Shown: in pieces, positions 1 through 32,000 of the stretch
Position numbering within the stretch: the stretch's first letter is position 1
Layout: every line of letters begins with the position of its first letter
DNA from: Nonlabens ponticola
Lineage (GTDB): Bacteria > Bacteroidota > Bacteroidia > Flavobacteriales > Flavobacteriaceae
DNA length: 32,000 nt
Direction of reading: 5' to 3'
Assembly: GCF_003966335.1 (NCBI RefSeq)
Contig: NZ_CP034549.1
Location: 1,740,001 to 1,772,000, forward strand
The notes under the pieces: generated by a model
What the model was told of the DNA's origin: nothing
The model's input: the letters and a program-made list of their open reading frames with translations, nothing else
Databases searched by the model: none
Made by a program: the position numbers and the translations under genes

Positions 1-549
1 ATCTTCTAGCGTTGCTAGACCCAGCGTATAAGTGCTTTGATTAAGTAACGTTCTAAAGTTGCTGCGTGTCAATTGAATGCCATCAATGCGATTGAAGATC
101 ATGCCTCGCTCCACGCCATTTTCTGCCGCGCTTGAATTATTTTGTGTATATCGTACAAATCCAAAAACGTTGGCATCATTATCTGGATATTCTACCAGGA
201 CAAATTCCATACCGTTGGATGGACTTTGTCCTGACAATACTTGCTCTAATGCTATATAATCATCGTAAATGATGGAGAATTTATCACGATCAAATTTAAG
301 GGAATTGAAAAATTCTTCTGGTGAATCAAACTGCTTGTGATATTCCTCTAGCTCATTAACTGTTTCAAATCTATCGTCAGCCAGTACCGGAATCTCTGCC
401 TTATATAGATAAAAGGCGTTCATGCCACGATATACAAAGTTCTTGATGGTGACATCACTGGCAAAGCGATCATCATTATCATCTGCACATCCAATAATTA
501 AACTAGTTGCAGCAATAAAGGAAATAAGTAAAAGAGGTCTATAATTCAT
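1..549 (-). CDS. S41-family (C-terminal processing type) peptidase, N-terminal part; the gene runs off the left edge
   Basis: My own translation of the reverse strand from the ATG at 549-547 stays open to base 1. It begins MNYRPLLLISFIAATSLIIGCADDNDDRF (lipoprotein-type signal), then FVYRGMNAFYLYKAEIP and a PDZ-like stretch GFVRYTQNNSSAAENGVERGMIFNRIDGIQL. It is absent from the ORF track because it is truncated. Confidence 0.6.
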   Translation of the reverse strand, partial: MNYRPLLLISFIAATSLIIGCADDNDDRFASDVTIKNFVYRGMNAFYLYKAEIPVLADDRFETVNELEEYHKQFDSPEEFFNSLKFDRDKFSIIYDDYIALEQVLSGQSPSNGMEFVLVEYPDNDANVFGFVRYTQNNSSAAENGVERGMIFNRIDGIQLTRSNFRTLLNQSTYTLGLATLED

Positions 550-718
550 AAAGCAATTTTAAGTCAGCATTAAAAATAAAGAATTAAGCAGCATAAGGTT
601 CAATCTATAGTGAAACTATTGTGCCATACCTACGATATAAAAGGCCTATTTGTTTTAAAAATTTGATGACCTTGTAACAAATTGAAAACAGGCTCGTCAT
701 GCCTATAGAGACGTTTAC

Positions 719-1228
719 ATGAACCAACCAACTTTCATAGCGACATTTCAAGACGTACAAAAAAGAATGTACCAATTGTCAAGAAGATTGCTCACCTCGC
801 ACGAGGAAGCAGCAGATGCCGTGCAGGAAACCATGCTCAAGCTATGGGAAAAGCGCGAGAAGTTGAAAGATGTAAATAATAAGGAAGCCTATGCCATGCA
901 AATGGTGAAGAACTTCTCTCTAGATCGATTGAAGAGTAAGCAGGCTGGACATCTTAAAATTGTCCATAATAATTATGACTCAGGCGATCGCAACGCACAG
1001 GAAGAAATGGAGCGAGCTACCACGGTAAGCACCGTACAGCAGCTCATCGCAGATCTTCCAGAGAATTATAGAATGGTCATACAACTGCGTGACATACAGC
1101 AATATGACTATGAGGCGATAGAGAAAATAATGAATATGAAGGCAACGGCAGTGCGTGTTAGTTTAAGCCGGGCACGCAAGTTGCTTAAAGAACGAATAGA
1201 ACAGTATCACAACACAGAAACAGCATGA
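719..1228 (+). CDS. RNA polymerase ECF-type sigma-70 factor
   Basis: 169 aa with an ATG start. Region 2-like segment EEAADAVQETMLKLWEKREKL and region 4-like segment LPENYRMVIQLRDIQQYDYEAIEKIMNMKATAVRVSLSRARKLL. Its stop overlaps the next start (ATGA at 1225-1228). Confidence 0.85.
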   Translation: MNQPTFIATFQDVQKRMYQLSRRLLTSHEEAADAVQETMLKLWEKREKLKDVNNKEAYAMQMVKNFSLDRLKSKQAGHLKIVHNNYDSGDRNAQEEMERATTVSTVQQLIADLPENYRMVIQLRDIQQYDYEAIEKIMNMKATAVRVSLSRARKLLKERIEQYHNTETA

Positions 1229-1689
1229 ATGATTTGTTAGAAAAATACTGGAATGGTGCTACCAGCCTGCAAGAAGAGCAGCAACTGCGCGATTATTTTG
1301 CAGGAGACTCTGTGGCGAGAAGCCACGAGGTGTACCGCAGCTTGTTCAACAGTTTTGAGCTGGAGAGTAGGTTAGAGGATGGTGATTATGACGCTTTCGC
1401 GAAAGTGAAATCAAAACAATCACAAGACCACATTTTTAACCGCAGAACATGGAAAGGAATCGCCATAGCAGCAAGCATGGCCGTGGCAGTAGCGGTAGGA
1501 ACTGGATATTTTGAGACCCAGCAGCAACAAGATTTAGGCACCTATGAAACGCCTGAAGAAGCGTATGAAGCAACCGTGGCAGCGCTAGAAATGGTAAGTG
1601 CCAGAATCAATAAGGGTAAAAGCACCTTGCAGCCCATGAAAGAAATTAATCAACAAGCAGCGCCAGTCATACAGCTGGCTCAAAAATAA
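1225..1689 (+). CDS. Putative anti-sigma factor or membrane-anchored partner of the ECF sigma
   Basis: Translationally coupled to the sigma gene. It has one predicted TM segment (WKGIAIAASMAVAVAVGTGYF). The function is inferred from position only. Confidence 0.5.
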   Translation: MNDLLEKYWNGATSLQEEQQLRDYFAGDSVARSHEVYRSLFNSFELESRLEDGDYDAFAKVKSKQSQDHIFNRRTWKGIAIAASMAVAVAVGTGYFETQQQQDLGTYETPEEAYEATVAALEMVSARINKGKSTLQPMKEINQQAAPVIQLAQK

Positions 1690-4078: not shown

Positions 4079-4152
4079 CGGGATGTAGCGCAGCCTGGTA
4101 GCGCGCGCGCATGGGGTGCGTGAGGTCGCAGGTTCAAATCCTGTCATCCCGA
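4079..4152 (+). tRNA. tRNA-Pro (anticodon GGG)
   Basis: Hand-folded cloverleaf. Acceptor cgggatg/catcccg, D-arm gcgc-agcctggta-gcgc, anticodon arm cgcgc-atGGGgt-gcgtg, T-arm gcagg-ttcaaat-cctgt, discriminator a. It is 74 nt and CCA is not encoded. Confidence 0.9.
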
Positions 4153-4417: not shown

Positions 4418-4879
4418 TTAATAGCCCAAAAACTGAACACTCACCCAAGTGTCTAGATATTCATCCAGGCTTTCTGGATTTAATTGTTCGTATAGTTTGG
4501 CCAACTGCTTATTCTCTAAGTTAATAGTGAGTAATAAATGTTGCTCGTCCAATTCATTTTTGAATTCGGTTTTGTTGTCAGCTTTTCTAGCAGCTCTTCT
4601 CAGCATTCTCAAGACTACCTTTTTAGAATAAACTTCTGTTCCTAGAGAAAAGTCTGTTGTGGATTTTCCTGACTCTTTAGCAAATCGATGATAGTCAAAT
4701 TCATCTATGGCGTTTATCTCCTTTACGATAGAAAACACCGCGGCCGTATTTGAAAGTTGACTGCTAGTCGATATAGTGACATCATCCAGATGAACCATTT
4801 TAGATGATGTATGCATGTGTTGTGCATATGAATTAAATGATAGTAAAATTGTCCCGATAGTAAAAAGTAAAGTTTTCAT
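4418..4879 (-). CDS. Secreted protein of unknown function
   Basis: ATG start and signal peptide MKTLLFTIGTILLSFNSYAQ. I recognise no motif. Confidence 0.5.
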   Translation of the reverse strand: MKTLLFTIGTILLSFNSYAQHMHTSSKMVHLDDVTISTSSQLSNTAAVFSIVKEINAIDEFDYHRFAKESGKSTTDFSLGTEVYSKKVVLRMLRRAARKADNKTEFKNELDEQHLLLTINLENKQLAKLYEQLNPESLDEYLDTWVSVQFLGY

Positions 4880-5022
4880 GATAGTTGTTTTTAATTACGG
4901 CACAAATATAGGTTTGTTATGTAGTTGAGTTGTTTTACATCATTCACTTGTAATGTTATATTATTCCTGTAATCGATATTTTAAGTAGATATAGAACGAT
5001 TATAGGAAGGCGCGTAGTTAGG

Positions 5023-5110
5023 ATGTCTGCTCGAGCGCAGTCGAGAGCTACCTCGTTCCGAGAAAGTTTTTGATTTGAAAAAGAGGTCTCGACGGCGCTC
5101 GACCAGACAT
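5023..5110. repeat. Intergenic imperfect palindromic element (24-nt arms, 40-nt spacer)
   Basis: atgtctgctcgagcgcagtcgaga (5023-5046) against tctcgacggcgctcgaccagacat (5087-5110) gives 22/24 complementary positions. Confidence 0.5.
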
Positions 5111-5284
5111 TTCACGCCGCTAATCTTTTGATTTGAACTAGACCGCCACTCATATCACGACTATAGCTAGAAATAGCTACTTTTTTTAATAAAATTTAAG
5201 CAACTGAATTGAGCTGAGTCCCAGTAATATTAAAAAGTAGAAAGTATTTGCTCTAAACGACAAAATTATTCAACTGCCTTAAAC

Positions 5285-5506
5285 CTAGTCTTCATGGAAA
5301 GTATCCAGGTACAATTGTTCGACCTTCTCGCGAGCCCATGGCGTACGACGCAAAAATTTGAGGCTGGATTTCACCGTCGGATTTGTATTAAAGGCATTGA
5401 TGCGTATGTGGCCGCCTAGGTCGTGCCAGCCATAGTGATCGACTAGTTTCTCAACCATATCGGCCAGTTTCACGCCGTGTAGTGGATTGTTAGGTTGTGA
5501 TTCCAT
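5285..5506 (-). CDS. DUF2132 / VF530-family small protein
   Basis: MESQPNNPLHGVKLADMVEKLVDHYGWHDLG...KSSLKFLRRTPWAREKVEQLYL matches my memory of the DUF2132 signature. The ATG at 5506 overlaps the upstream TGA by 1 nt; the track start at 5509 is a TTG. Confidence 0.7.
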   Translation of the reverse strand: MESQPNNPLHGVKLADMVEKLVDHYGWHDLGGHIRINAFNTNPTVKSSLKFLRRTPWAREKVEQLYLDTFHED

Positions 5507-6027
5507 CAATCTTCCTCGCTCATGACCATAGTTTCCTTGACCACGCCAGTATTGCCGTTTTTGTCAATGGTGACCTTAAAGAATGTTTCATAATCATCTT
5601 CTGATAGCTCGCCGTAGGTTTCATCGTTTTGTAGATCGTTGACATAACCGTTAATGGTGTTGCTATGACCATAAACCACTACCGTTTTACAGCGATAATC
5701 TTCTAGCAATTGTTTGCCGGTAAGTGTGCTCACATCATAAGTTTCTATAGCTACCTTTTGCGCCTTTGCAAGCGGTGTAGCGGTTGCCTGAGTGCGTTTA
5801 AAGTCAGATGACAGCACGTGATCCACATCTTTTAAGAAGAAATAATTTACCCATTCTTGTGCACGCTTCTGGCCAGCTGGTGCAAGCTCTGGATCGCTGC
5901 CTTGATCGGTTCGTTTTTCTGCATGGCGCATGAAATACAGTGTGGTCAAACCATCGTTTGATTGTGAATTTCCTTTTTCATTGCAGGAAACAAGCATCAT
6001 CATAGCAAGCAGGAACGTGATTCTCAT
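5506..6027 (-). CDS. Histidine phosphatase (phosphoglycerate mutase / SixA-like) family lipoprotein
   Basis: LYFMRHAEK (RHxE catalytic motif) and a later GHSNT. ATG at 6027 gives a lipoprotein signal MRITFLLAMMMLVSC; the track start at 6057 is a TTG. Confidence 0.75.
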   Translation of the reverse strand: MRITFLLAMMMLVSCNEKGNSQSNDGLTTLYFMRHAEKRTDQGSDPELAPAGQKRAQEWVNYFFLKDVDHVLSSDFKRTQATATPLAKAQKVAIETYDVSTLTGKQLLEDYRCKTVVVYGHSNTINGYVNDLQNDETYGELSEDDYETFFKVTIDKNGNTGVVKETMVMSEED

Positions 6028-6122
6028 GAGATCTTCTTTGGTCTCAAAAATAGGCAATTATGCAGCAGCATGGAACCTACTCGTTATTCACAAATCGTGG
6101 TGAAATGATGTTGATTAATTTT

Positions 6123-6136
6123 GCTTTCGCGAAAGC
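6123..6136. repeat. GCTTTCGCGAAAGC palindrome copy, 51 nt upstream of parE and fused to a TAATTTTG -7-like box
   Basis: Exact 14-nt palindrome. The 21 nt taattttgctttcgcgaaagc are identical to the copy at 11115-11135. Confidence 0.7.
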
Positions 6137-6186
6137 TAACACACCACAATCTTTGTTACATTACAAGCTAGGACATAAGGAAGAAA

Positions 6187-8046
6187 ATGGCTGGAGAAAC
6201 TAAATATACCGAGGATAATATACGGTCGCTGGACTGGAAGGAACACATCAGGATGCGTCCTGGAATGTACATAGGTAAACTGGGCGATGGCTCAAGTGCT
6301 GATGATGGTATCTATATTTTATTGAAGGAAGTCATCGATAATTCTATCGATGAATTTGTCATGGGCGCTGGTAAAACCATTGAGGTTTCTATTCAAGGCG
6401 AGCGTGTGATCGTGCGCGATTACGGTCGCGGTATACCGCTGGGTAAGGTGGTTGATGTAGTGTCCAAAATGAATACCGGTGGTAAGTACGACAGTCGTGC
6501 CTTTAAAAAATCAGTAGGTCTTAATGGAGTAGGAACCAAGGCTGTGAACGCATTGTCCAACTACTTTAGGGTTGAGTCTACCAGAGACGGCAAGAGCGCC
6601 AGTGCAGAGTTTGAGCGTGGTGAATTGCAGGATAAAGAAATGCTTGACGAGACCAGCCGCCGTAAAGGAACCAAGATCACTTTTGTACCAGACGACGAGA
6701 TCTTCAAGAATTTCAAATACCGTCCAGAGTATGTGGTGCGCATGTTGAAATATTATGTGTATCTCAATCCTGGCTTGACGATCATCTTTAATGGTGAGAA
6801 ATATTACAGCGAGAATGGTCTAAAGGATCTATTAGGCGAGACGATTAATGAGAGTGACCGATTGTACCCAATCATTCACCTACGCGGCGAGGACATCGAG
6901 ATTGCTCTTACACATAGTAAAACCCAGTACAGTGAGGAATACCACTCTTTCGTCAATGGTCAGAACACCACCCAAGGTGGTACGCATCAGGCAGCTTTTA
7001 GAGAAGCAATAGTCAAAACCATACGTGAGTTTTACAACAAGAATTATGACGCGAGCGATGTGCGCAAGTCCATTGTGAGCGCGATTGCGGTAAAAGTGAT
7101 GGAGCCGGTTTTTGAATCACAGACCAAAACTAAACTAGGTTCTACCGAAATGGGTGGCAAACTACCAACGGTACGTACATTTATCAATGATTTTGTTAAG
7201 ACTCAGCTAGATAATTACCTGCACAAGAATGCAGAAACTGCCGATGCGCTGCAACGCAAAATCATTCAGGCAGAACGTGAGCGCAAGGAATTATCAGGAA
7301 TACGTAAACTAGCCAAGGATCGTGCTAAGAAAGCCAGCCTACACAACAAGAAACTGCGCGATTGCCGTGTTCATCTAACTGATAATAAGAAAGACGCGCA
7401 CCTAGACAGCACGCTCTTCATTACGGAAGGTGATAGTGCTAGTGGATCCATAACTAAATCTCGTAATGTGAATACCCAAGCAGTGTTTTCGCTGCGTGGT
7501 AAGCCGCTTAACTCATACAACATGAGTAAGAAGATTGTCTATGAGAATGAGGAGTTTAACCTACTGCAAGCAGCATTGAATATTGAGGATAGCATGGAAG
7601 ACCTGCGCTACAACAAGATCGTGATCGCTACCGATGCCGATGTTGATGGTATGCACATACGATTACTACTCATCACGTTCTTCCTGCAGTTTTTCCCGGA
7701 GCTTATCAAGAAAGGACATTTGTACATTTTGCAAACACCACTTTTTAGAGTACGTAACAAGAAAGAAACACGCTATTGCTACACGCCAGAAGAACGCGCT
7801 CAAGCACTAGCAGAACTGGGCAAAAACCCTGAAATCACTCGATTTAAGGGTCTAGGTGAGATAAGTCCAGACGAGTTCGTTCATTTCATAGGCGACGACA
7901 TCAGATTGGATCCTATAATGCTAGACGAGAACATGAGCATCGAGGAATTACTCAAATTTTACATGGGTAAAAACACACCAGACCGTCAAGAATTTATCAT
8001 CGATAATTTGAAAGTGGAGTTGGATGTGGTTGAGGAAAGTGCTTGA
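6187..8046 (+). CDS. parE: DNA topoisomerase IV subunit B (type IIA topoisomerase ATPase subunit)
   Basis: 619 aa. GHKL ATPase motifs ([26 protein letters not shown]) and a Toprim region ([19 protein letters not shown]). Its size and pairing with the downstream ParC-type subunit favour ParE over GyrB. Confidence 0.85.
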
Positions 8047-25363: not shown

Positions 25364-26794
25364 ATGCTCAGAGTAGTTAAACATATTCTTATTAAGTCAA
25401 AGGAGTACACGCTGATTGCATTTTTTCTCATGTCCACTAATGCACTAGCACATATCTCTGAAGCGCATGAACGCATAGAAAAGGAGGCATATAAACTATT
25501 GATAGAGCAAGAAGCTACTGAAAATCATCCAGATGGTCTTAGCATGTTCAACTATTTGGTAGCTCAAAATTATATTAAAGAATCTGATGAGGCGAGTAGT
25601 GCCTACCCAGATCTAGACTTGAGTCGTCAATTTCTTTCTGATAGACAGATTTATCATTTTATGGCAAGTAGTCGCTATGTAATGCAAGCGCTACGTCGTT
25701 ATGATAACATAGATGAGCAGCAACATTATATTATCAGTAAAGCATTGCCAGAATGCATCAATCTGCTATACACCTTGACTCGTGAGACGATTGATAATCC
25801 AACTGGAGCCAATCAAGCAGGTCGCGGCATATACGTGTTGATGCACGCCATCACTGATTCCTATTCTAGGGAGCATACGATAAGGCAACCTATTACTCAC
25901 AACATTCAAAATATTAAAAGTTGGAAACTGTCACGTCTATTTTGGCCAGAAGTAGCCAAGTTGAAGGCTGATAACTCAAATGATGAAGTTGAGACCTTGG
26001 TGTTTCTTCACTCTATTGAGGGCAAGGCAGATGCAGAATGGGTCGACGAAGAAGGAAATTTAAATGAAGAAGCAAAAGCAGCGGTAAATGCTATAAAAGA
26101 GCTGCTAATTATCATTTACCAAGCAACACAAAATAAAGCTGAGGTAGATTCATTGATCACTTCTTACATAGGCAAACATTTTCAGCCAGTTGGTGCGGTG
26201 GTGAATGACCAACAATTTGTCTTTGAGACTGAGAATACGACTATGGATTTGAGTTATGAAGATGGATATTTTGATAATTCAAATGTTCTAGAGTTAGACC
26301 GCTATCCACATTACTCACATATGCTTACTTTTCAAAATGGATTATCCCAAATTGAAAGACCATCTTTTGGGTATGAGTTAGGTATTCACATATCGCCCAG
26401 AGCTGCATTTTCCTCAACATCCTTTTTCCAGAGACTGCCTTACGGCATTGTGATAGGAATCAATGAGAATACTGATATTTTACCAGATGCATCGCTAGTA
26501 GAATCCTTACAATTCAAAGCCGCTGCCAAGGTGATGTTTTATCTACCGCTGCGCAATTTGGTACTGGAACCCAGATTAGGATTGGGAATGACGCCTCTCA
26601 ATTCTAATGACAACAACCTTGGCTTACTTACGGGCTTTGATGTGGCATTCAATCTAGGTAGAGACAATAATCGCCAACGAACCAAACGTTTCTCCATAGG
26701 CTATGAGTACGATGCTTCTGGACTTCATTCTTACAACAGTATTTTGTTGAAAGCAGGTTTCAATAATTGGCAAGGGCGAGTTGTAAAGAAGTAA
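25364..26794 (+). CDS. Secreted protein: N-terminal phospholipase C / P1-nuclease-like zinc-site motifs, C-terminal beta-rich region
   Basis: Signal peptide ends ...NALA|HISEAH. The motif MHAITDSYSREH (H-x3-D-x5-H) has the spacing of the zinc ligands H118/D122/H128 of B. cereus PLC and H116/D120/H126 of P1 nuclease. Function is tentative. Confidence 0.45.
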   Translation: MLRVVKHILIKSKEYTLIAFFLMSTNALAHISEAHERIEKEAYKLLIEQEATENHPDGLSMFNYLVAQNYIKESDEASSAYPDLDLSRQFLSDRQIYHFMASSRYVMQALRRYDNIDEQQHYIISKALPECINLLYTLTRETIDNPTGANQAGRGIYVLMHAITDSYSREHTIRQPITHNIQNIKSWKLSRLFWPEVAKLKADNSNDEVETLVFLHSIEGKADAEWVDEEGNLNEEAKAAVNAIKELLIIIYQATQNKAEVDSLITSYIGKHFQPVGAVVNDQQFVFETENTTMDLSYEDGYFDNSNVLELDRYPHYSHMLTFQNGLSQIERPSFGYELGIHISPRAAFSSTSFFQRLPYGIVIGINENTDILPDASLVESLQFKAAAKVMFYLPLRNLVLEPRLGLGMTPLNSNDNNLGLLTGFDVAFNLGRDNNRQRTKRFSIGYEYDASGLHSYNSILLKAGFNNWQGRVVKK

Positions 26795-26826
26795 GGTTTT
26801 GAGTGGTTAGGAATGAAATTAAAATG

Positions 26827-26893
26827 CTGTAACGACTGTTGCCAAGCAAAAGCCCGATTTTTAAATATTATTTTCTCATATACAATGTTGTTT
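26827..26893 (-). repeat. Degenerate or truncated terminal attC-like remnant
   Basis: ctgtaac...gttgttt ends. The inner part gccaagcaaaagcccgatttttaaatattatttt resembles gccacaagccagatttttaaattttactattt inside the 27552-27749 repeat. The left L-box arm is not recognisable. Confidence 0.35.
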
Positions 26894-26907
26894 ATAGTAC
26901 TTACACG

Positions 26908-27534
26908 TTAACTTGTTGTATAATAGTTTATTAATAACTTGTCATCATTCCGCCATTCTAGCCAACCTTTTATTTTCCGTCCATTTTCACAATGTTCGCC
27001 TGTCTCAACTTCAATCCAATCATTCTGCATTCGTATTACGGTGAAACAGTCCTCTTTAGAACCCAATTTTACTATTTCTGAATTCGTAAATGGTTTTGAA
27101 TAAATATTCTGTGTGTTTTTATCAACTCTTTCAATGCTAAACATATTTTGAAGATATTCTTCCCACGTGTGAAATTCAATGTAATCTGTATTCTTTATCC
27201 ACATGGTTTTAGTGTCTGAAACATAAATTTCAAAACAGTCAGTTTCATTCGTTTTAGTCCTGAACGAGAATTGGTGATAATCTAACCATAACGATTCTGG
27301 CTGCAGCCATTGTTGTTGATTCTCCAAGTCTTTAATATTCCAACTATTGATAGACTCGTCTTTGAAGAACTCAATAGTTTTCACTTTTTTATTTAAATCT
27401 GAACCCTCGTAAAAGTCTATTAACGTGTTGTTGTTGTTGTTGAAATTTATTGAGACAATTCCGATTCCTAACTCACTTTGGGAAAGAGAAGTTAATGATA
27501 CTAAATTTAAAACTAATAATATTATTATTCTCAT
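26908..27534 (-). CDS. Cassette ORF: secreted protein of unknown function (possible SH3b-like C-terminus)
   Basis: ATG at 27534 gives MRIIILLVLNLVSLTSLSQ. The C-terminal CFTVIRMQNDWIEVET...IKGWLEW is SH3b-like by eye. The track start at 27555 is a GTG inside the attC. Confidence 0.55.
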   Translation of the reverse strand: MRIIILLVLNLVSLTSLSQSELGIGIVSINFNNNNNTLIDFYEGSDLNKKVKTIEFFKDESINSWNIKDLENQQQWLQPESLWLDYHQFSFRTKTNETDCFEIYVSDTKTMWIKNTDYIEFHTWEEYLQNMFSIERVDKNTQNIYSKPFTNSEIVKLGSKEDCFTVIRMQNDWIEVETGEHCENGRKIKGWLEWRNDDKLLINYYTTS

Positions 27535-27551
27535 TGGTTTTTTCGCATTAT

Positions 27552-27749
27552 GCACAACGGTCTTGTGTATGGCTTGTTGCGTGCAAATTAGCGATTAATT
27601 TTCGGTTGAGCCACAAGCCAGATTTTTAAATTTTACTATTTATCTTTTTTCTTGGAAATCGTCAAATTTAAAAATTTGGCGACTTTCCAAATATACCTTA
27701 ACTTTGGTTTAAGCAACTGATTAGCAATGAGCTATACACGTTGTTGGCA
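27552..27749 (-). repeat. attC-like site (long variant, 198 nt)
   Basis: gcacaac-ggtctt-gtgtatggcttgttgc ... gcaatgagctatacac-gtt-gttggca. The internal hairpin is ggaaatcgtcaaattt/aaatttggcgactttcc. Confidence 0.65.
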
Positions 27750-27757
27750 AACGTTTT

Positions 27758-28351
27758 TTAGTCAATTCCTAAATCATTTGTTATTGAGTGTTCCAATTTT
27801 ATTTCGCTAATTGGTATTCCCAAGTTTTTGTTTATTATTCCAATTACAATTCGCTCAACCACGTATTTGTCCGTTATTTTTTCAATATCAATCAGTTTTT
27901 CTTGGTTCAAAGCGATTGTCCAGTCAACTAATTCGCGCAAAGTTCCGCTCGAAACAGGCGTGGTTCGTTTAATCGTTTTAATTCCAAAAATTTTGACGTG
28001 AGAACCTAATTCCGGATTAAAATCAAGTGCAACCAATTCAGGCAAATCAAGTCCGATTTCGGTTTTTAGTAGATGCCAATTTTCTTTCAATTCCGTTTGA
28101 GTGAGCAATTCCGATATTTTGGTTTCGGGTTTGATTTCTTTTTCGGTCAAATTTAAGTTCCGAAATGCTTTTCTAATTCGATAAAAGACAATTTGGGTTA
28201 AGCATTTTTCATTCGGATTGGTGATTATTTTACTGTAAACACAATCCACAAAATTTTGAACGGTATAAATCTTTTCCGCTTCGGAATCCTCAATTCGTAT
28301 TCCAAATTTGTCTTCAACTGACATCAATAATTCAACGGAATCTAATCCCAT
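27758..28351 (-). CDS. Cassette ORF: acyl-carrier-protein-like (PP-binding-like) repeats in a shifted phase
   Basis: The N-terminus [38 protein letters not shown] aligns by eye to E. coli ACP [41 protein letters not shown]. The C-terminus [32 protein letters not shown] aligns to ACP helix I plus the DLGAD motif. Start is ATG at 28351, or TTG at 28357. Confidence 0.55.
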
Positions 28352-28372
28352 TCTCAATTTGGTTTAAATGTT

Positions 28373-28504
28373 TGCCAACGGTTTCGGCTATGCGCAGTTG
28401 CGTACCTTATCCTTGTCTATCCAAATATACCCAAACCGTAGAAAATTTCGCAGAGATTTTCGTCTGAGCAAGAACCAAGCAATTGCGTATAGCCCTTGTT
28501 ACCA
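28373..28504 (-). repeat. attC-like site (132 nt)
   Basis: tgccaac-ggtttc-ggctatgcgcagttgc ... gcaattgcgtatagcc-ctt-gttacca. The central hairpin is gaaaatttcgcagagattttc. Confidence 0.7.
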
Positions 28505-28510
28505 CACGTT

Positions 28511-29155
28511 TTATTCGCGTTGAAATTTCTTTTCGACGCTCAACTTAGCTATCAAATCTTCTGCTTTCTTATTCAGCTTTACAATAGGTAGTTCTTGGTT
28601 GTATTCGTAATTTAAATTTGGTTTTGAGATGAACGAAGTGCTATCTATTGACGTTGTCAAGTCAAATTTATCAAAATCCGAGGTATAATTCTTATTCTCT
28701 GCTGTGAACCAATAATATCTTAAAGGCTGATGTGTAACAGTTGTGTATTCATTTTCGCCTATTTGATATTGTTTAACTTCCGAGATGATAATTTCTTGCT
28801 TGTTATCTAGATAGTATTCTAATGGCTCTGATTGCGAAAGTTTAATTGGTTCAAATTTTCCGCAGTTATCAAATTTCTGAATGAAGTTTGATTCATTTTT
28901 GTTCCAGAATGCAAAGAGCTGGTAATAGGTTCTCTTTGGCAGGCAAACTTTCTTTTTCGAATATCCTTTTTTTATGAATGTTATAGTCCCGTATTGAATG
29001 TATTGTACAATGAAATAGTCTTTGACGCCCATTTCCTTCATCGATGATTGAATTTGAGAAATATGCTCCATAGCATCTAAGTCGGTGTTATTAATGTTAG
29101 AAGTTTTACAGCTAACAAGTAATAAGATTAATACTGTAGTGATTAAATGTCTCAA
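28511..29155 (-). CDS. Cassette ORF: lipoprotein of unknown function
   Basis: The TTG start at 29155 is the only start codon after the upstream in-frame stop. The signal is (M)RHLITTVLILLLVSCKTS (lipobox). Confidence 0.55.
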   Translation of the reverse strand: MRHLITTVLILLLVSCKTSNINNTDLDAMEHISQIQSSMKEMGVKDYFIVQYIQYGTITFIKKGYSKKKVCLPKRTYYQLFAFWNKNESNFIQKFDNCGKFEPIKLSQSEPLEYYLDNKQEIIISEVKQYQIGENEYTTVTHQPLRYYWFTAENKNYTSDFDKFDLTTSIDSTSFISKPNLNYEYNQELPIVKLNKKAEDLIAKLSVEKKFQRE

Positions 29156-29167
29156 TGTCCAAATGTG

Positions 29168-29299
29168 TGGTAACGGTCTTGTATAAGAATAGTGCGGTTT
29201 TGTGTGCGAGGATTTTCCGAAGGAAAATCAGACGTAACAAAATTGCACTAACCTTTGATTAAGCACTAAACTACGCATTATTTTTATACGTTGTTGTGT
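29168..29299 (-). repeat. attC-like site (132 nt)
   Basis: tggtaac-ggtctt-gtataagaatagtgcg ... cgcattatttttatac-gtt-gttgtgt. The central hairpin is gattttccgaaggaaaatc. Confidence 0.7.
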
Positions 29300-29306
29300 G
29301 CAGTTT

Positions 29307-29765
29307 TTATTGTTTTAATCTTTCATTTTTTAATTCTTTCATATCATAAACATTAACTCCAAGAGCTCTAGCATAGTCAGATAGAGCGGAGTCTGATGTT
29401 ATGAGCATTTCGCAATCTTTGGCACATTCTAAAATCAGCGTATCTGCAAGTCCGAGGTCATAAAATGAATAATTGTTTTCAACCATTTTAGATTCAAGAT
29501 ACTTTTCGGAAGTTATTTTAATTGTTTCGATTATTCTTTTTACATATAATTCTTTTTGACTACCTGTGAACTTATTAAGTAAATTGTCAACTTCAGTCCA
29601 GATATTTGGAAGAACTACTATTGATTCTATTTTTTTAATTGCAGAAACTAAATTATGAAAATCTTCCTCTTCATAAATAGACGTTTTACTGTGCTTATTT
29701 ATTAAAGCAGGATTCATTAATCCTAATATTAAAACTAAAAGAGAGTTAGAATCTATTAAAATCAT
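29307..29765 (-). CDS. Cassette ORF: PIN-domain nuclease (VapC-like toxin candidate)
   Basis: The four acidic PIN positions appear in context: ILIDSN, WTEVDNL, GLADTLILE and LITSDSAL. It is 152 aa. Its ATG shares 1 nt with the upstream stop (TAATG). Confidence 0.65.
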   Translation of the reverse strand: MILIDSNSLLVLILGLMNPALINKHSKTSIYEEEDFHNLVSAIKKIESIVVLPNIWTEVDNLLNKFTGSQKELYVKRIIETIKITSEKYLESKMVENNYSFYDLGLADTLILECAKDCEMLITSDSALSDYARALGVNVYDMKELKNERLKQ

Positions 29766-30034
29766 TACTTTTCATAGATATAAAATCCAATAACATTTTT
29801 TTCATTGTCTATTTTTACTTTCTTATAAATTCTATGATATGTAAATCCAGATGTCAAAGCTCCTAGTGGAGACGTTGGTTTATTTGTGTTTTCGACTAAA
29901 TATGAAACAACAATTTCCCAAATTTTTTCCTCTTTTTGATATTCAGCTTGTTCTAATCTGAAATCTGAATTGTCAAGTGATGAAAGTCCTGACAATTCAG
30001 TTTTAGCTATTTGATATAATTCTTTTAAATTCAT
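29765..30034 (-). CDS. Cassette ORF: 89-aa partner of the PIN gene (antitoxin candidate of unrecognised type)
   Basis: It is translationally coupled upstream of the PIN gene within the same cassette. No RHH, AbrB or Phd-like motif is visible. The pattern W-EIVVSY...KKVKIDNEKNVIGFYIY is PepSY-like by eye. Confidence 0.5.
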   Translation of the reverse strand: MNLKELYQIAKTELSGLSSLDNSDFRLEQAEYQKEEKIWEIVVSYLVENTNKPTSPLGALTSGFTYHRIYKKVKIDNEKNVIGFYIYEK

Positions 30035-30058
30035 ATTGTCTTTGGTTTGTCAAATTGC

Positions 30059-30190
30059 ACACAACGGTCTCGGCTATGAGTAGTTGCGTGGGTTAGCCTT
30101 GTTTTCTCAAATGTACCCAACCCGTAGAAAATTTCGTAGAAATTTTTGGATGACCACAAACCGAGCAATTGTGTATAGCCCGTGTTGTAA
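30059..30190 (-). repeat. attC-like site (132 nt)
   Basis: acacaac-ggtctc-ggctatgagtagttgc ... gcaattgtgtatagcc-cgt-gttgtaa. The central hairpin is gaaaatttcgtagaaatttt. Confidence 0.7.
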
Positions 30191-30199
30191 AACGTTTAT

Positions 30200-30802
30200 T
30201 TAGTAGCAATGAAGCGTTCGATGTTCCTCTTCTTCGTGATAATTTATTTCGCCACTAATAGCGTCGATTAGTAGTATTTCATCCTTTGAATAACATTTCT
30301 CCTCGTAAAGCGTGTTGAAAACTTTCCATTCATATTTGTCAGTATGAATATTCCACTCCAATCTCATTGTTATAGGCGATACAGCTTTCTTTAATTTTAT
30401 TTTCGATACGATGTTTTCGACTTGTTTTTTGGTCAGAAAATTTGAGTTTTCATTTTTGAGCAAATATTCCGGTATTCGCTCATCAAAATACATATCAATA
30501 AATTTCAATGAGGTATCAAATTCCATATAAACTCCAAGATGTACATTTTCGAACGTGAAATTTGGATGGTTTAAATCATATAAAACTTCATATCTATCAA
30601 AAGGCGAAGAAATCACATCTAAGCTATCAGTTTTGGCTAGCCGAGACTCTTTATCTAAACTGAAGTATTCAATTAAATGTTTTCCGAAATGGGCATTTAA
30701 TACACTATCTGCTTTCACTAAAATTTGAGAGGCAGTATGATTTTGACCATTGCCATGGTAAGCCATTGAAACAAAAAAGAAAAATGTAATTAAAGGTTTC
30801 AA
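30200..30802 (-). CDS. Cassette ORF: secreted protein of unknown function (PepSY-like C-terminal pattern)
   Basis: TTG start at 30802, 11 nt from the attC edge, with no other start after the upstream stop. Hydrophobic N-terminus KPLITFFFFVSMAY. The C-terminal YEWKVFN...EILLIDAISGEI resembles PepSY. Confidence 0.5.
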   Translation of the reverse strand: MKPLITFFFFVSMAYHGNGQNHTASQILVKADSVLNAHFGKHLIEYFSLDKESRLAKTDSLDVISSPFDRYEVLYDLNHPNFTFENVHLGVYMEFDTSLKFIDMYFDERIPEYLLKNENSNFLTKKQVENIVSKIKLKKAVSPITMRLEWNIHTDKYEWKVFNTLYEEKCYSKDEILLIDAISGEINYHEEEEHRTLHCY

Positions 30803-30813
30803 TTCTAAATGTT

Positions 30814-30944
30814 TTACAACGGTCTCAGCTATGAGTAGTTGCGTGGTTTAGCACTTAACTTTGCAAGTACACACCTAACTGAAAATCCGCGAGGATTTTC
30901 AGAAGTAGGCGAGAACCAGCAATTACTTATAGCCATTGTTGTAC
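30814..30944 (-). repeat. attC-like site (131 nt)
   Basis: ttacaac-ggtctc-agctatgagtagttgc ... gcaattacttatagcc-att-gttgtac. The central hairpin is ctgaaaatcc-gcg-aggattttcag. It is nearly identical to the site at 31753-31883. Confidence 0.75.
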
Positions 30945-30951
30945 ACAGTAT

Positions 30952-31734
30952 TTATTTACTTAATTCTATTTGAAATTTTGTCGCATTAAATGCTGCTTGC
31001 AAACCTCTTAAATTTGTTTCAGATTTATTTTGTTCAAATAATTCAGCCAAGTATTCAGCTTGTTTGGTCACATTATCATTCTCCTTTTTAAATATTTGAT
31101 ATTTTAAAAGAATCAAATTCGCCATGATTTTATCTGAAATAGTTATATCACCTTGGTTTAGGTATTCCTTTATTGTACTTCCTATCTCGGAATCGTTTTC
31201 AGATAGTTCATCGAATAAGTAAGCATTAGCCAAGTCAGATTTATTCATAGTTGAGTAATCGTTTTGGTCAGACATATCTTTTCGGTAAGTCATTTTGTTG
31301 CCATTTAGAAAATACCATCTGGTGTAAGAATCATTTTCCATTTTGATTTCTTTTTCAAAAGCTTTTTTCTTTACAGTCCAATTTGTGAAAGCAATCAAAA
31401 GTTCAGTTCCGTCATCTTTCTTTAATATGGTAAATCGAATCAAGTAATTTCTTTTCCCTGGTTTTTCAATTTCGATGTCTAATTTATTTTCTACAGAAAC
31501 ATATTTTTTCAATGCTTTTAGAACTGATGAAACATCTTCAGGACTTGCTTCAGGAAATAAGTTTTCTCTTAAAAACAAATCAATGTATAAGTAATGAGTT
31601 AAATAAAAATCATCCATTTTCAGATAATTCGCCTCTGTCAAATGTTCGGTTTTGATATTGATTTTGTCTGATTGAGAATATCCAAAATTTGTGAATATTG
31701 CTAAAAGTAAAAGTGTGATTATTTTTCTGTTCAT
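30952..31734 (-). CDS. Cassette ORF: secreted protein of unknown function
   Basis: ATG start and signal peptide MNRKIITLLLLAIFTNFGYSQ. It is 260 aa with no recognised motif. Confidence 0.55.
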   Translation of the reverse strand: MNRKIITLLLLAIFTNFGYSQSDKINIKTEHLTEANYLKMDDFYLTHYLYIDLFLRENLFPEASPEDVSSVLKALKKYVSVENKLDIEIEKPGKRNYLIRFTILKKDDGTELLIAFTNWTVKKKAFEKEIKMENDSYTRWYFLNGNKMTYRKDMSDQNDYSTMNKSDLANAYLFDELSENDSEIGSTIKEYLNQGDITISDKIMANLILLKYQIFKKENDNVTKQAEYLAELFEQNKSETNLRGLQAAFNATKFQIELSK

Positions 31735-31752
31735 TCTGTTGGGTTATATTGT

Positions 31753-31883
31753 GTACAACGGTCTCGGCTATGAGTAGTTGCGTGGTTTAGTACTTAACTT
31801 TGCAAGTACACACCAAGTTGGAAATTCCGCAGGAATTTCAAAAGTAGGCGAGTAGAAGCAATTACTTATAGCCATTGTTGTAT
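31753..31883 (-). repeat. attC-like site (131 nt)
   Basis: gtacaac-ggtctc-ggctatgagtagttgc ... gcaattacttatagcc-att-gttgtat. The central hairpin is ggaaattcc-gc-aggaatttc. Confidence 0.75.
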
Positions 31884-31891
31884 GCTGGCTT

Positions 31892-32000
31892 TTAAAGTCT
31901 CATCATTACCTCCGTTAATTTATTTTTTCTAATTTTCCATTGAAATTCTCTTAACTCCTCTATTTCAATGTTGCCATCTTTCGCTTTTAAAGTTTCAATG
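31892..32000 (-). CDS. Cassette ORF, 3' end only (the gene continues beyond the right edge)
   Basis: This is the only minus-strand frame open from 32000 down to the TAA at 31894-31892. My own translation ends ...IETLKAKDGNIEIEELREFQWKIRKNKLTEVMMRL*. The stop lies 8 nt from the attC edge, as in the other cassettes. Confidence 0.45.
   Translation of the reverse strand, partial: IETLKAKDGNIEIEELREFQWKIRKNKLTEVMMRL

Follow-up and report, generated by a model that had tools for sequence, protein, structure and literature searches.

Repeats and cassettes at the right end of the window

The window, that is the whole stretch of 32,000 nt of Nonlabens ponticola DNA analysed here, carries toward its right edge a series of minus-strand open reading frames (ORFs) separated by six repeats, all of them oriented on the plus strand and spanning 4.3 kb (Table 1). 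These repeats had been proposed by a sequence-only reading of the same DNA, and all six were located again, each running from AAC to GTT on the plus strand; the sites are delimited here in this way, and the positions of that reading begin 4 nt ahead of each AAC. AAC is followed by a 6-nt spacer (GGTCTY or GGTTTC) and then by a 16-bp stem, free of gaps, around a variable middle; a 3-nt spacer leads on to GTT. Set against canonical attC features (PMC7439510; PMC11641012), the window sites are imperfect palindromes with ...AAC and GTT... ends, two stems, an unpaired spacer and a variable centre. Extrahelical (bulged) bases, of which attC sites normally have two or three, are absent from the six stems, all gapless over 16 bp. 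A long site class of about 180-190 nt, like site 1, also occurs in related loci, and site 3 contains an inner mini-hairpin, GGATTTTCCGAAGGAAAATC, at 29210. The sites lie directly downstream of stop codons, with GTT 13-15 nt away. A covariance model scan found no further sites in the left 26.9 kb of the window; at the Rfam gathering score, a tRNA-Pro at 4079-4152 was the sole window match, and no family matched the sites.

Each cassette would comprise a minus-strand ORF, or an ORF pair, followed by its site. The remnant at the distal end directly adjoins the stop codon of a 476-aa chromosomal gene; its match is borderline (it scores 39, where shuffles reached at most 36), and it was missed by covariance model CM R1. 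No family match was found for the ORF of cassette 2, while the two-gene module of cassette 3 is likely a toxin-antitoxin pair. At the right edge, the outer-stem half of cassette 6 (31880-31893) should find its partner in a flank of a seventh site past the edge. With orphan ORFs and a PIN module, the cassettes have the content usually seen in sedentary integrons.

Table 1. Sites and cassettes of the window. Site extents run from AAC to GTT on the plus strand; scores refer to covariance model CM R1 on the plus and minus strands.
Feature	Positions	Strand	Description
Cassette 0 (distal)	26793-27557	-	ORF 26908-27555 and decayed site remnant (about 26793-26917)
Site 1	27556-27745	+	190-nt attC-like hairpin; stem GTGTATGGCTTGTTGC / GCAATGAGCTATACAC; G:T at stem positions 7 and 12, T:G at 11
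Cassette 1	27558-28378	-	Site 1 and ORF 27758-28357 (weak PP-binding match); outer-stem halves 27746-27759 / 28363-28376 (GTT + 7 bp, G:T wobble, 3 bp)
Site 2	28377-28500	+	124 nt; stem GGCTATGCGCAGTTGC / GCAATTGCGTATAGCC; 90.6 bits (+), 11.2 bits (-)
Cassette 2	28379-29173	-	Site 2 and ORF 28511-29155; outer-stem halves 28501-28514 / 29158-29171
Site 3	29172-29295	+	124 nt; stem GTATAAGAATAGTGCG / CGCATTATTTTTATAC; 96.4 bits (+), 10.2 bits (-)
Cassette 3	29174-30064	-	Site 3, PIN-like ORF 29307-29765 and 89-aa ORF 29765-30034; outer-stem halves 29296-29309 / 30049-30062
Site 4	30063-30186	+	124 nt; two extra wobbles; A.G mismatch at stem position 8
Cassette 4	30065-30819	-	Site 4 and ORF 30200-30802; outer-stem halves 30187-30200 / 30804-30817
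Site 5	30818-30940	+	123 nt; A.C mismatch at stem position 1
Cassette 5	30820-31758	-	Site 5 and ORF 30952-31734 (260 aa)
Site 6	31757-31879	+	123 nt; 107.1 bits (+), 18.3 bits (-)
Cassette 6	31759-32000	-	Site 6 and 3' end of an ORF running past the window edge

Inner stem, outer stem and strand asymmetry

Pairing of the inner stem was clearly maintained across the six sites, with 98.2% of cells paired, against 25-48% in slid controls, and the observed pairing and covariation were reached in none of 500 shuffles. Both sides are altered in 10 of the 16 stem pairs, i.e., the changes are compensatory, and the arm pairs quoted earlier in favour of covariation (GGCTAT/ATAGCC, GTATAA/TTATAC, GTGTAT/ATACAC, AGTA/TACT, CGCA/TGCG and AATA/TATT) are correct. 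In site 1, one of the pairs at positions 8-11 is a T:G, missed at the time. G opposite T at stem positions 7 and 12 is indeed invariant (6/6 sites), as had been stated with two examples that we found to be exact (31772 G with 31867 T, and 31777 G with 31862 T). In site 4, the two additional wobbles on the plus strand are present as described, but the A.G mismatch at position 8 had been omitted. In site 5, A stands opposite C at position 1 on the plus strand, the one mismatch that favours the minus strand.

An outer stem of 14 bp forms only between the two flanks of an ORF. It is made up of AAC/GTT, seven cassette-specific base pairs, a T:G wobble, which is the third invariant wobble of the plus strand, and three further base pairs. 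Over exactly 10 nt, the 5' flank of each following site, once reverse-complemented, is identical to the 3' flank of the site before it (5/5); a site's own two flanks match over just 3-6 nt, and its own outer stem is mostly unpaired as it sits in the array. All seven variable pairs have changed on both sides and 100% of the cells are paired, which was reached in 0 of 500 shuffles. Among 228 pairs of adjacent sites from the whole family (see below), flank positions 1-7 are Watson-Crick pairs in about 83%, and position 8 is G:T in 194 and A:C in none. Divided in this way, the outer stem represents the R box that mobile cassettes carry in split form. It should be noted that the strand-biased wobble is limited to the three conserved positions, G:T (58) and A:C (64) being equally rare at the other stem positions; the wobble argument thus rests on three fixed positions and not on a general strand bias.

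The predicted DNA stability of the two strands differed modestly, with values (plus minus minus) of -0.9, -1.2, -2.6, +1.7, -2.2 and -3.9 kcal/mol for sites 1-6 as they stand in the array. Folding both strands, a check suggested by the sequence-only reading, therefore favoured the plus strand in five of the six array sites and gave the opposite result for site 4. Once the cognate outer stem was added, the plus strand was the more stable in 5/5 cases, by 0.7 to 7.4 kcal/mol. Over the family (228-341 sites), the wobble strand was more stable in 95% of the cognate forms (mean of -4.0 kcal/mol) and in 91% when only AAC..GTT was folded. Two observations thus back the folding of the plus strand that had been proposed: the three invariant wobbles, all with the same polarity, and this asymmetry in energy.

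The same structures could act at the level of RNA, either by terminating or stabilising the cassette mRNAs or within a plus-strand antisense RNA, the link with cassettes being secondary. G:U pairs are typical of RNA structures, and the close distance to the stop codons (13-15 nt to GTT) would suit such a role. However, the cassette mRNA corresponds to the minus strand, and there the fixed positions give A.C mismatches in place of G:U; moreover, the sites match no Rfam family, and neither the outer-stem halves that pair only across each ORF nor the AAC breakpoints (see below) would be explained. We consider a role in RNA very unlikely.

The site family in Bacteroidota and the exchange of cassettes

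The same type of site was found in at least 120 genome stretches, nearly all of them from Bacteroidota. A gapless scan retrieved 361 family sites. In 359 unique sites, the three wobbles, the 6-nt/3-nt loop and the orientation of the ORFs recur, the ORFs being on the complementary strand in 175 of 224 intervals and on the same strand in 5. Arrays are unidirectional, with covariance-model matches on one strand per locus, and the sites are spaced by one ORF (median of 828 nt). The unusual geometry suspected earlier in the window repeats, without bulged bases and with a loop of 6 nt against 3 nt, holds true across the family, and the G:T wobbles and this loop are the only irregularities of window and family sites.

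Traces of mobility were found between genomes. Cassette 5 (942 nt, site 5 and the 260-aa ORF) recurs with 10 differences in L001 (GCA_001306415.1, contig LDJX01000007.1). Near-identity covers window positions 30818-31759 and stops within the 5' AACG of site 6 (31757-31760), and the 5' flank of site 5 differs between the two genomes. In other loci, shared blocks stop at +3 to +6, or start at -3 to 0, from the 5' AAC. Judging from these alignments, the crossover lies within the 5' AACG of site 6, four letters common to both sequences, and a breakpoint at this place implies that the plus strand carries the crossover. Two to three shared blocks end on the GTT side and some start in the 3' arm; furthermore, in L091 and L120 (96% identity) the ORF and both flanks are kept while the body of the site is different. 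Exchange at the GTT end thus seems to occur too. Breakpoints, flank exchange and ORF polarity taken together show the features of integrons, namely a crossover at AAC on the ORF-complementary strand and a split R box. Breakpoints and ORF polarity, apart from the wobbles, back the earlier designation of the plus strand as bottom strand, and the sequence data support it as the candidate recombinogenic strand, complementary to the cassette ORFs.

The minus strand of the same system might nevertheless be the active one, with the A.C mismatches at positions 7 and 12 and the three surplus loop bases of the 3' arm as equivalents of the extrahelical bases. In canonical attC sites, the extra bases lie on the 3' arm of the bottom strand, as in the VchIntIA-VCR structure, and on the minus strand the longer spacer (GAGACC) is indeed on the 3' arm; mismatches at a fixed spacing could act as landmarks, and site 4 folds slightly better on that strand. 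Yet the strand cut by a tyrosine recombinase that sits on the outer stem is the one running from the 5' arm into the loop, and activity of the minus strand would put breakpoints at the plus-strand GTT, whereas the sharp ones cluster at the plus-strand 5' AAC. The ORFs would then sit on the recombined strand in 175 of 180 decidable family intervals, the opposite of every integron known to us, and the minus strand is the less stable one in 91-95% of family sites. Activity of the minus strand therefore appears improbable.

Recombinases of related loci, proposed mechanism and known systems

The sequence-only reading had placed attI and an integrase gene beyond the right edge. The 32-kb window contains no recombinase, hence none to the left of the array there. 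In related loci, 12 tyrosine-recombinase ORFs were found, and the gene lies on the foreseen side, with an attI-like junction adjoining, in 8 of 11 recombinase-bearing loci. In these eight, the gene points the same way as the cassettes ("reverse integron" layout). A 10-mer with AAC at its end, matching the last cassette's flank, lies about 28-180 nt past the stop codon of the recombinase gene (in six loci, about 30-50 nt) and is followed by a short hairpin that does not resemble the attI sites described so far. L087, L097 and L077 show other arrangements; if L087, where the recombinase is divergently oriented, is counted, the AAC-junction match beside the gene is found in nine loci.

The eight array-linked recombinases score 148-227 bits (in two stretches) against TIGR02249, whose integron-integrase cutoff is 265. 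They lack the IntI-specific I2 insertion: in the alignment with VchIntIA (2A3V), a segment of 64 chain residues (183-246) has 21 query residues opposite it, while the alignment with XerA is uninterrupted (E of 1e-42 to 1e-46). Neither the I2 helix nor a score above TIGR02249 or an intI_Cterm match, which mark integron integrases, was found in the recombinases of related loci, which have about 43 residues fewer, including the I2 region, an N-terminal extension of 75-110 aa and a C-terminal SPLD motif.

Such enzymes could carry out ordinary double-strand recombination at the AAC core, as I2-less Xer-type enzymes do, the palindromy being incidental or serving duplex binding. The continuous alignment with XerA is in favour of this, as is published work in which I2 is the device for recognition of single-strand attC (PMC7790495). 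On the other hand, the arms covary without conservation of sequence, in the inner stem and in 7 bp of the outer stem, as expected for intrastrand pairing and not for sequence-specific duplex binding, and all three fixed asymmetries between arms are G:T on one strand. In addition, I2-less Xer enzymes do recombine a folded single-stranded hairpin in CTX phage (PMC7790495). Recombination of duplex sites is thus, in our view, a poor candidate.

Intergenic imperfect palindromes after stop codons are also known as REP/BIME, MITE and intrinsic terminators, and a REP- or MITE-like spread by a transposase or by replication slippage, unrelated to a tyrosine recombinase, has to be weighed. The palindrome family is indeed repeated between genes of many genomes, and an rve-family transposase lies at the end of the L001 contig. 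By contrast with such elements, the sites are confined to one-directional arrays, one ORF apart, none being dispersed and none present in the left 26.9 kb of the window; target duplications were not found, the flanks are exchanged between neighbouring sites, breakpoints fall at AAC, the wobbles are on the strand that is not the mRNA, and in eight loci a recombinase gene and its matching AAC junction form the end of the array. This origin seems extremely improbable.

We regard it as likely that the six repeats serve as attC analogues in a chromosomal cassette array, integron-like and of a Bacteroidota type. From a mechanistic point of view, the enzyme at work would presumably be a neighbouring tyrosine recombinase, a relative of IntI and XerA expected past the right edge. 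After excision of a cassette as a circle, the plus strand of its site would fold into a hairpin made of the 14-bp outer (R) stem, the loop of 6 nt (5') and 3 nt (3'), the 16-bp inner (L) stem and the variable centre. The recombinase would bind both stems and cleave this single-stranded substrate at the 5' AAC beside the 6-nt loop; that strand alone would be exchanged, and the junction may then be resolved by replication. As the three wobbles become A.C mismatches on the other strand, they may, with the unequal loop, bias folding and recognition to the plus strand, and the ORFs of inserted cassettes would consequently face away from the end where the recombinase lies.

The repeats probably represent a widespread Bacteroidota variant of integron sites in which sites and neighbouring recombinase are both devoid of hallmarks thought necessary for single-strand recombination. 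More tentatively, and with slightly less than even confidence, we propose that Bacteroidota possess their own, widespread integron analogue, in which an I2-less Xer/IntI-like recombinase acts on folded hairpins without extrahelical bases, strand choice is made by the three G:T wobbles and the 6/3 loop, the outer stem provides a cassette-specific 7-bp "barcode" and attI is a mini-hairpin. If so, hairpin-based cassette capture would be older than the acquisition of I2, or would have arisen twice, and a phylum considered almost devoid of integrons would harbour a large stock of cassettes that present tools may overlook.

Likeness to sedentary chromosomal integrons, e.g., the Vibrio cholerae repeats, is extensive: a promoterless ORF followed by an AAC...GTT imperfect palindrome, a crossover at the 5' AAC of the ORF-complementary strand, a split R box, two stems kept apart by an unpaired spacer, a centre that varies, arrays that run in one direction and contain orphan ORFs and toxin-antitoxin cassettes, and a linked tyrosine recombinase of IntI-like sequence including the SPLD motif. 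Unlike them, Bacteroidota sites combine three fixed G:T wobbles with the lack of extrahelical bases, a 14-bp outer stem of which 7 bp are cassette-specific, a 6/3 loop and a continuous 16-bp inner stem; their recombinase is shorter by about 43 residues including I2, extended by 75-110 aa at its N-terminus and below TIGR02249, and closely past the recombinase gene the attI-like site takes the form of a short hairpin. In Treponema denticola, the integrase has the IntI insertion and the attC sites are of the canonical type, whereas the Bacteroidota recombinase and sites show neither hallmark. This T. denticola reverse integron, described as an integron (PMC4909258), shares the layout found in 8 of the 11 recombinase-bearing related loci. 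CTX and other IMEXs differ in relying on host XerCD and dif for a whole phage genome, in contrast with a dedicated recombinase beside an array of many cassettes. CTX integration involves one strand exchange, resolved by replication, and other IMEXs likewise use XerC/XerD. Lastly, "integron-like" simple tyrosine recombinases were classified as proteins only, with no cassette arrays or hairpin sites for the members without the insertion (Smyshlyaev et al., 2021), and the Bacteroidota recombinases may belong to this group.

Structure and distribution of the cassette array

The array, at about 26.8-32.0 kb, fills the window's right-hand end and is unlike the remainder. Its G+C content is 0.30-0.34 (positions 27000-32000), against 0.38-0.43 in the flanking chromosome, and its sizeable ORFs all lie on the minus strand, with six copies of an imperfect palindrome, probable analogues of attC sites, between them (see table). 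The genes to its left are ordinary chromosomal ones, for YchF, an ECF sigma factor, tRNA-Pro, topoisomerase IV subunits, DnaN, an aldehyde dehydrogenase, a subtilase with a type IX secretion sorting domain, a NUDIX protein and a zincin, a gene content which identifies the window as part of a Bacteroidota chromosome. The 32 kb contain no gene for a tyrosine recombinase, and no Rfam family matched inside the array. Cassette 3 comprises two overlapping ORFs, one of 152 aa with a weak PIN-domain match, preceded by one of 89 aa; this pair is probably a toxin-antitoxin module, of the type common in sedentary integron arrays.

Every site follows the same order: AAC, a 6-nt spacer, a gapless 16-bp inner stem with a variable centre, a 3-nt spacer and GTT. 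When the arms of the six sites were aligned without gaps, 98.2% of the inner-stem cells formed standard pairs and 10 of the 16 pairs were altered on both sides. The observed pairing values were reached by none of 500 shuffles, and slid registers were only 25-48% paired. Non-pairs among the 96 cells numbered 2 on the + strand and 16 on the minus strand. The sequence-only reading had described stem positions 7 and 12 as G opposite T, which indeed holds in all six sites, with exact coordinates. Its list of mismatches was correct for this invariant G:T but overlooked an A opposite C at position 1 of site 5; the two extra wobbles it gave for site 4 are present, together with an A.G mismatch that it missed, and its covarying positions 8-11 also include an overlooked T:G pair in site 1. 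Its expectation of an unusual extrahelical-base geometry was borne out, the sites being free of bulged bases.

A second stem is split between neighbouring sites. Over exactly 10 nt (GTT plus 7), each site's 3' flank reads as the reverse complement of the next site's 5' flank, and beyond this an invariant G in the 3' flank faces a T in the 5' flank, followed by three further pairs; the two flanks of one and the same site match over just 3-6 nt. A cassette closed as a circle would provide its site with a 14-bp outer stem, in which seven of seven variable pairs show compensatory changes among five cassettes while the wobble is invariant. Such a split flank pattern is the signature of integron cassettes, where the R box is divided at insertion. 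The outer-stem wobble, with T on the 5' side, is a third + strand-specific wobble, the earlier reading having reported those of the inner stem alone.

A search of species-representative genomes with the pattern AACGG-N4-GGCTATG...ATAGCC-N3-GTT gave at least 120 genome stretches carrying the site type, and all but a few of these come from Bacteroidota; the window's own genome is absent from the loci listed. Among the matches listed, Flavobacteriaceae were the majority, with some Saprospiraceae, Chitinophagales, Sphingobacteriales, Cytophagales and Prolixibacteraceae, and one Melioribacteraceae (Ignavibacteriota). Cultured carriers include the Winogradskyella strains of L004 and L102. Two loci, L005 and L088, lie on short contigs of MAGs labelled Nanoarchaeota and Roseobacteraceae, respectively. 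L005 shares a 1.1-kb block, 89% identical, with the Bacteroidia MAG L117, which points to binning contamination of these non-Bacteroidota bins rather than cross-phylum spread.

A hairpin scan of all listed loci, scoring G:T and A:C equally, gave 361 sites (359 unique), among which the unequal 6-nt and 3-nt spacers noticed in the window were the most frequent geometry. Across 228 adjacent-site pairs from the listed loci, flank positions 1-7 were Watson-Crick in about 83% of cases, while the two flanks of a single site, which seldom pair with each other in the array, reached about 33%; flank position 8 was G:T in 194 of the adjacent-site pairs and never A:C. The covariance model proposed as a check was built from 65 sites of 120-127 nt (CM R1). 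With this model, the window's five short sites scored 84-107 bits on the + strand and 10-18 bits on the minus strand, and there was no other match in the window; the 190-nt site 1 was not recovered whole because of the length of the sites used to build the model. In the first 60 of the loci listed it found 240 sites, those of any one locus all being on the same strand.

At the array's distal end, next to the stop codon of a 476-aa chromosomal gene, a 27-nt stretch is identical at 24 of 27 positions to the interior of the 190-nt class of sites, at the expected offset. The match is borderline (score 39, shuffle maximum 36), AAG stands where AAC is expected, and CM R1 gives no match at this location. 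This left end may tentatively be regarded as the remnant of a seventh site.

Coordinates of array features in the window and of related features in other genomes (L-numbers are loci carrying the same site type)
Locus	Feature	Position	Strand	Remark
Window	Candidate seventh site	26793-26917		decayed
Window	Site 1	27556-27745	+	AAC...GTT palindrome
Window	Site 2	28377-28500	+	AAC...GTT palindrome
Window	Site 3	29172-29295	+	AAC...GTT palindrome
Window	Site 4	30063-30186	+	AAC...GTT palindrome
Window	Site 5	30818-30940	+	AAC...GTT palindrome
Window	Site 6	31757-31879	+	AAC...GTT palindrome
Window	Cassette 3 ORF pair	29307-30034	-	
Window	260-aa ORF	30952-31734	-	cassette 5
Window	Block aligned with L001	30818-31759		
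Window	Centre mini-hairpin	29210-29229		
Window	Centre mini-hairpin	30881-30900		
L091	Block shared with L120	7134-7989		oriented
L120	Block shared with L091	3156-4000		oriented
L025	Recombinase	4875-6065		N-terminal extension
L108	Recombinase	5138-6349		N-terminal extension
L102	Recombinase	239-1366		N-terminal extension
L004	Recombinase	6745-7869		N-terminal extension
L015	Recombinase			N-terminal extension
L087	Recombinase			N-terminal extension
L004	attI-like junction	6700-6745		oriented; just downstream of recombinase stop
L102	attI-like junction	6586-6635		oriented; just downstream of recombinase stop
L015	attI-like junction	5879-5920		oriented; just downstream of recombinase stop
L011	attI-like junction	7252-7297		oriented; just downstream of recombinase stop
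L074	attI-like junction	7549-7597		oriented; just downstream of recombinase stop
L025	attI-like junction	848-879		oriented; just downstream of recombinase stop
L108	attI-like junction	5107-5138		oriented; just downstream of recombinase stop
L121	attI-like junction	6936-7059		oriented; just downstream of recombinase stop

Mobile unit and probable recombining strand

Flank complementarity is symmetric and hence silent on the strand involved, so the same cassette was sought in other genomes. Among the window proteins looked up by exact match (the PIN, 476-aa, 815-aa and 260-aa ORFs), only the 260-aa protein was on record; it is also encoded in GCA_001306415.1 (contig LDJX01000007.1, locus L001), in a different array and with other neighbours. 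The alignment is gapless, with 10 differences in 942 nt. On the right it ends inside the 5' AACG of site 6, beyond which spacer and body are unrelated, and at its left-hand end the 5' flank of site 5 differs. These breakpoints define the mobile unit as an ORF plus the site to its left in + coordinates, i.e., downstream of the ORF, with the junction at the 5' AAC of the + strand. Relative to this AAC, shared blocks among related loci start at -3 to 0 (four pairs) and end at +3 to +6 (five pairs). A breakpoint at the boundary between loop and inner stem (AAC+9), suggested by a spacer that differs in two shared-cassette pairs, was rejected, being contradicted by these five sharp right-hand ends.

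In canonical integrons, the exchange point on the folded bottom strand separates A from C in 5'-RYYYAAC-3' (PMC7439510). By this criterion, the breakpoints designate the + strand as the putative bottom strand, complementary to the cassette coding strand, in agreement with the sequence-only reading. Wobble polarity and ORF strand are concordant: of 224 intervals between sites in the listed loci, 175 have their dominant ORF on the complementary strand and 5 have it on the same strand. Exchange at the GTT side, or site-to-site conversion, seems to occur as well, since L091 and L120 share an ORF and both outer-stem halves at 96% identity next to site bodies of different subtypes, and several weaker shared blocks in related loci begin in the 3' arm. 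In the cassette shared with L001, the site diverges much more rapidly than the gene: of the 10 differences, 9 are in the site's 123 nt (in the spacer, at stem position 1 and in the centre) and one is in the other 819 nt.

The weight of the wobbles deserves caution. Among 257 unique sites of the listed loci outside the search-pattern selection, stem position 7 was G:T in 180, Watson-Crick in 73 and A:C in 2, the corresponding counts at position 12 being 188, 63 and 5. Treating such counts as independent evidence was rejected: hundreds of sites are not hundreds of trials when positions are conserved. As A:C is, moreover, unreachable from G:T by one change, the evidence comes down to three fixed positions with shared polarity. 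At the remaining stem positions of the listed loci, G:T (58) and A:C (64) were equally rare. The check proposed earlier, folding of both strands with DNA parameters, favoured the + strand in five of the six sites as they stand in the array, by 0.9-3.9 kcal/mol, while site 4 was reversed by 1.7 kcal/mol. In the cognate form, i.e., the site with its own cassette's outer stem, the + strand was predicted to be more stable in all five testable cassettes, by 0.7-7.4 kcal/mol. In the listed loci, the wobble strand was the more stable, by prediction, in 95% of sites in cognate form and in 91% when limited to AAC..GTT. This predicted energy advantage of the + strand is real, yet small for any single site. 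The wobble evidence is convincing only jointly with breakpoint side, ORF polarity and loop asymmetry, which are all concordant.

Linked recombinases and attI-like junctions in relatives

Twelve ORFs in the listed loci resemble IntI1. The IntI1 sequence served only as a probe, family assignment being drawn from TIGR02249 and XerA scores, Pfam, and alignments with 2A3V and XerA structures. In 8 of 11 assessable loci, the recombinase lies on the side equivalent to the window's right, on the same strand as the cassettes and with its 3' end towards the array, the 'reverse integron' layout of Treponema denticola (PMC4909258); L087, L097 and L077 show other arrangements. Each of those eight loci has a 10-mer ending in AAC about 28-180 nt past the stop codon of the recombinase gene (in six of them, about 30-50 nt past it), and the last site's 3' flank is the reverse complement of this 10-mer. 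In L087, where the recombinase is divergent, the equivalent 10-mer is upstream of the gene. The junction continues as AAC-nnTT-GTATA..., then a short inverted repeat, a hairpin which resembles the inner stem of cassette sites and has, in L074, G:T at position 7. This AAC junction joins the array physically to the recombinase gene and marks a putative attI-like site, unusual in that it looks like a miniature cassette site.

The array-linked proteins scored 148-227 bits with TIGR02249 (cutoff 265), in two stretches, and about equally with the XerA model, and Pfam gave generic integrase and SAM-like domains only. Against the VchIntIA structure (2A3V), 21 residues stand opposite chain residues 183-246, about 43 residues being missing, while XerA structures aligned end to end and with better E-values. 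The absent segment corresponds to the integron-specific insertion, and these recombinases are, judging from their sequences, not canonical IntI. The I2 helix of that insertion touches attC near an extrahelical base (PMC11641012), and its gain is held to have made single-strand recombination possible (PMC7790495); current accounts make single-strand attC recombination dependent on the reading of extrahelical bases by this helix (PMC7790495, PMC11641012). With the insertion missing and the sites devoid of bulged bases, protein and site lack their matching hallmarks together. Array-linked recombinases carry a 75-110-aa N-terminal extension, with a conserved (R/K)WS...(Y/W)(Y/H)(I/L)P motif and no Pfam match; two shorter recombinases, in L097 and L077, are without it.

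Relation to integrons and proposed mechanism

The array matches canonical integrons in its structure, the polarity of its ORFs, its AAC/GTT palindromes, the splitting of the R box and the side of the crossover, but fails two practical defining hallmarks, an IntI with the insertion and extrahelical bases. The element is most likely integron-like in its working. In IntegronFinder surveys, Bacteroidetes yielded almost nothing, only In0 elements and one Salinibacter integron (PMC9024848), and a 2024 preprint placed Bacteroidota among clades earlier found without any integrons. In a classification of tyrosine recombinases, the insertion was not fully conserved in an 'integron-like' subgroup, for which no arrays were described (PMC8138268). 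The full-text literature covered, an incomplete set, gave no account of flavobacterial cassette arrays or of these sites, and an earlier description may exist. What is present in these 120 or more, nearly all Bacteroidota, genome stretches is a cassette system with clear signs of mobility and neither hallmark.

Structure, covariation, breakpoints, polarity and linkage are observed; the chemistry of exchange proposed here is inferred. On the folded + strand, both stems, outer and inner, would be bound by a recombinase dimer. The loop strand of 6 nt would act as crossover region beside the cleaved AAC, and the 3-nt partner strand would be too short for a second exchange. A single strand may then be swapped, the partners being either two folded sites or one site and the attI-like hairpin, with replication resolving the junction; wobbles and unequal loop would work against the complementary strand. 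The seven cassette-specific outer-stem pairs would be possible only in the excised circle, and since a site's own flanks are seldom paired, circle integration may face the strongest structural selection. If active, the system would offer a natural test of the features truly required for structure-specific recombination, a new reservoir of mobile genes in marine Flavobacteriia, and compact hairpin sites with programmable stems for engineering.

The 'variable' centre of the sites also contains a conserved mini-hairpin, in two forms, GAAAATCC-loop-GGATTTTC or the swapped GGATTTTCC-loop-GGAAAATC. It was found in 153 of 359 family sites, from 80 of the listed loci, at a fixed distance from AAC (about 60 or about 30 nt), and may be a second protein-binding element.
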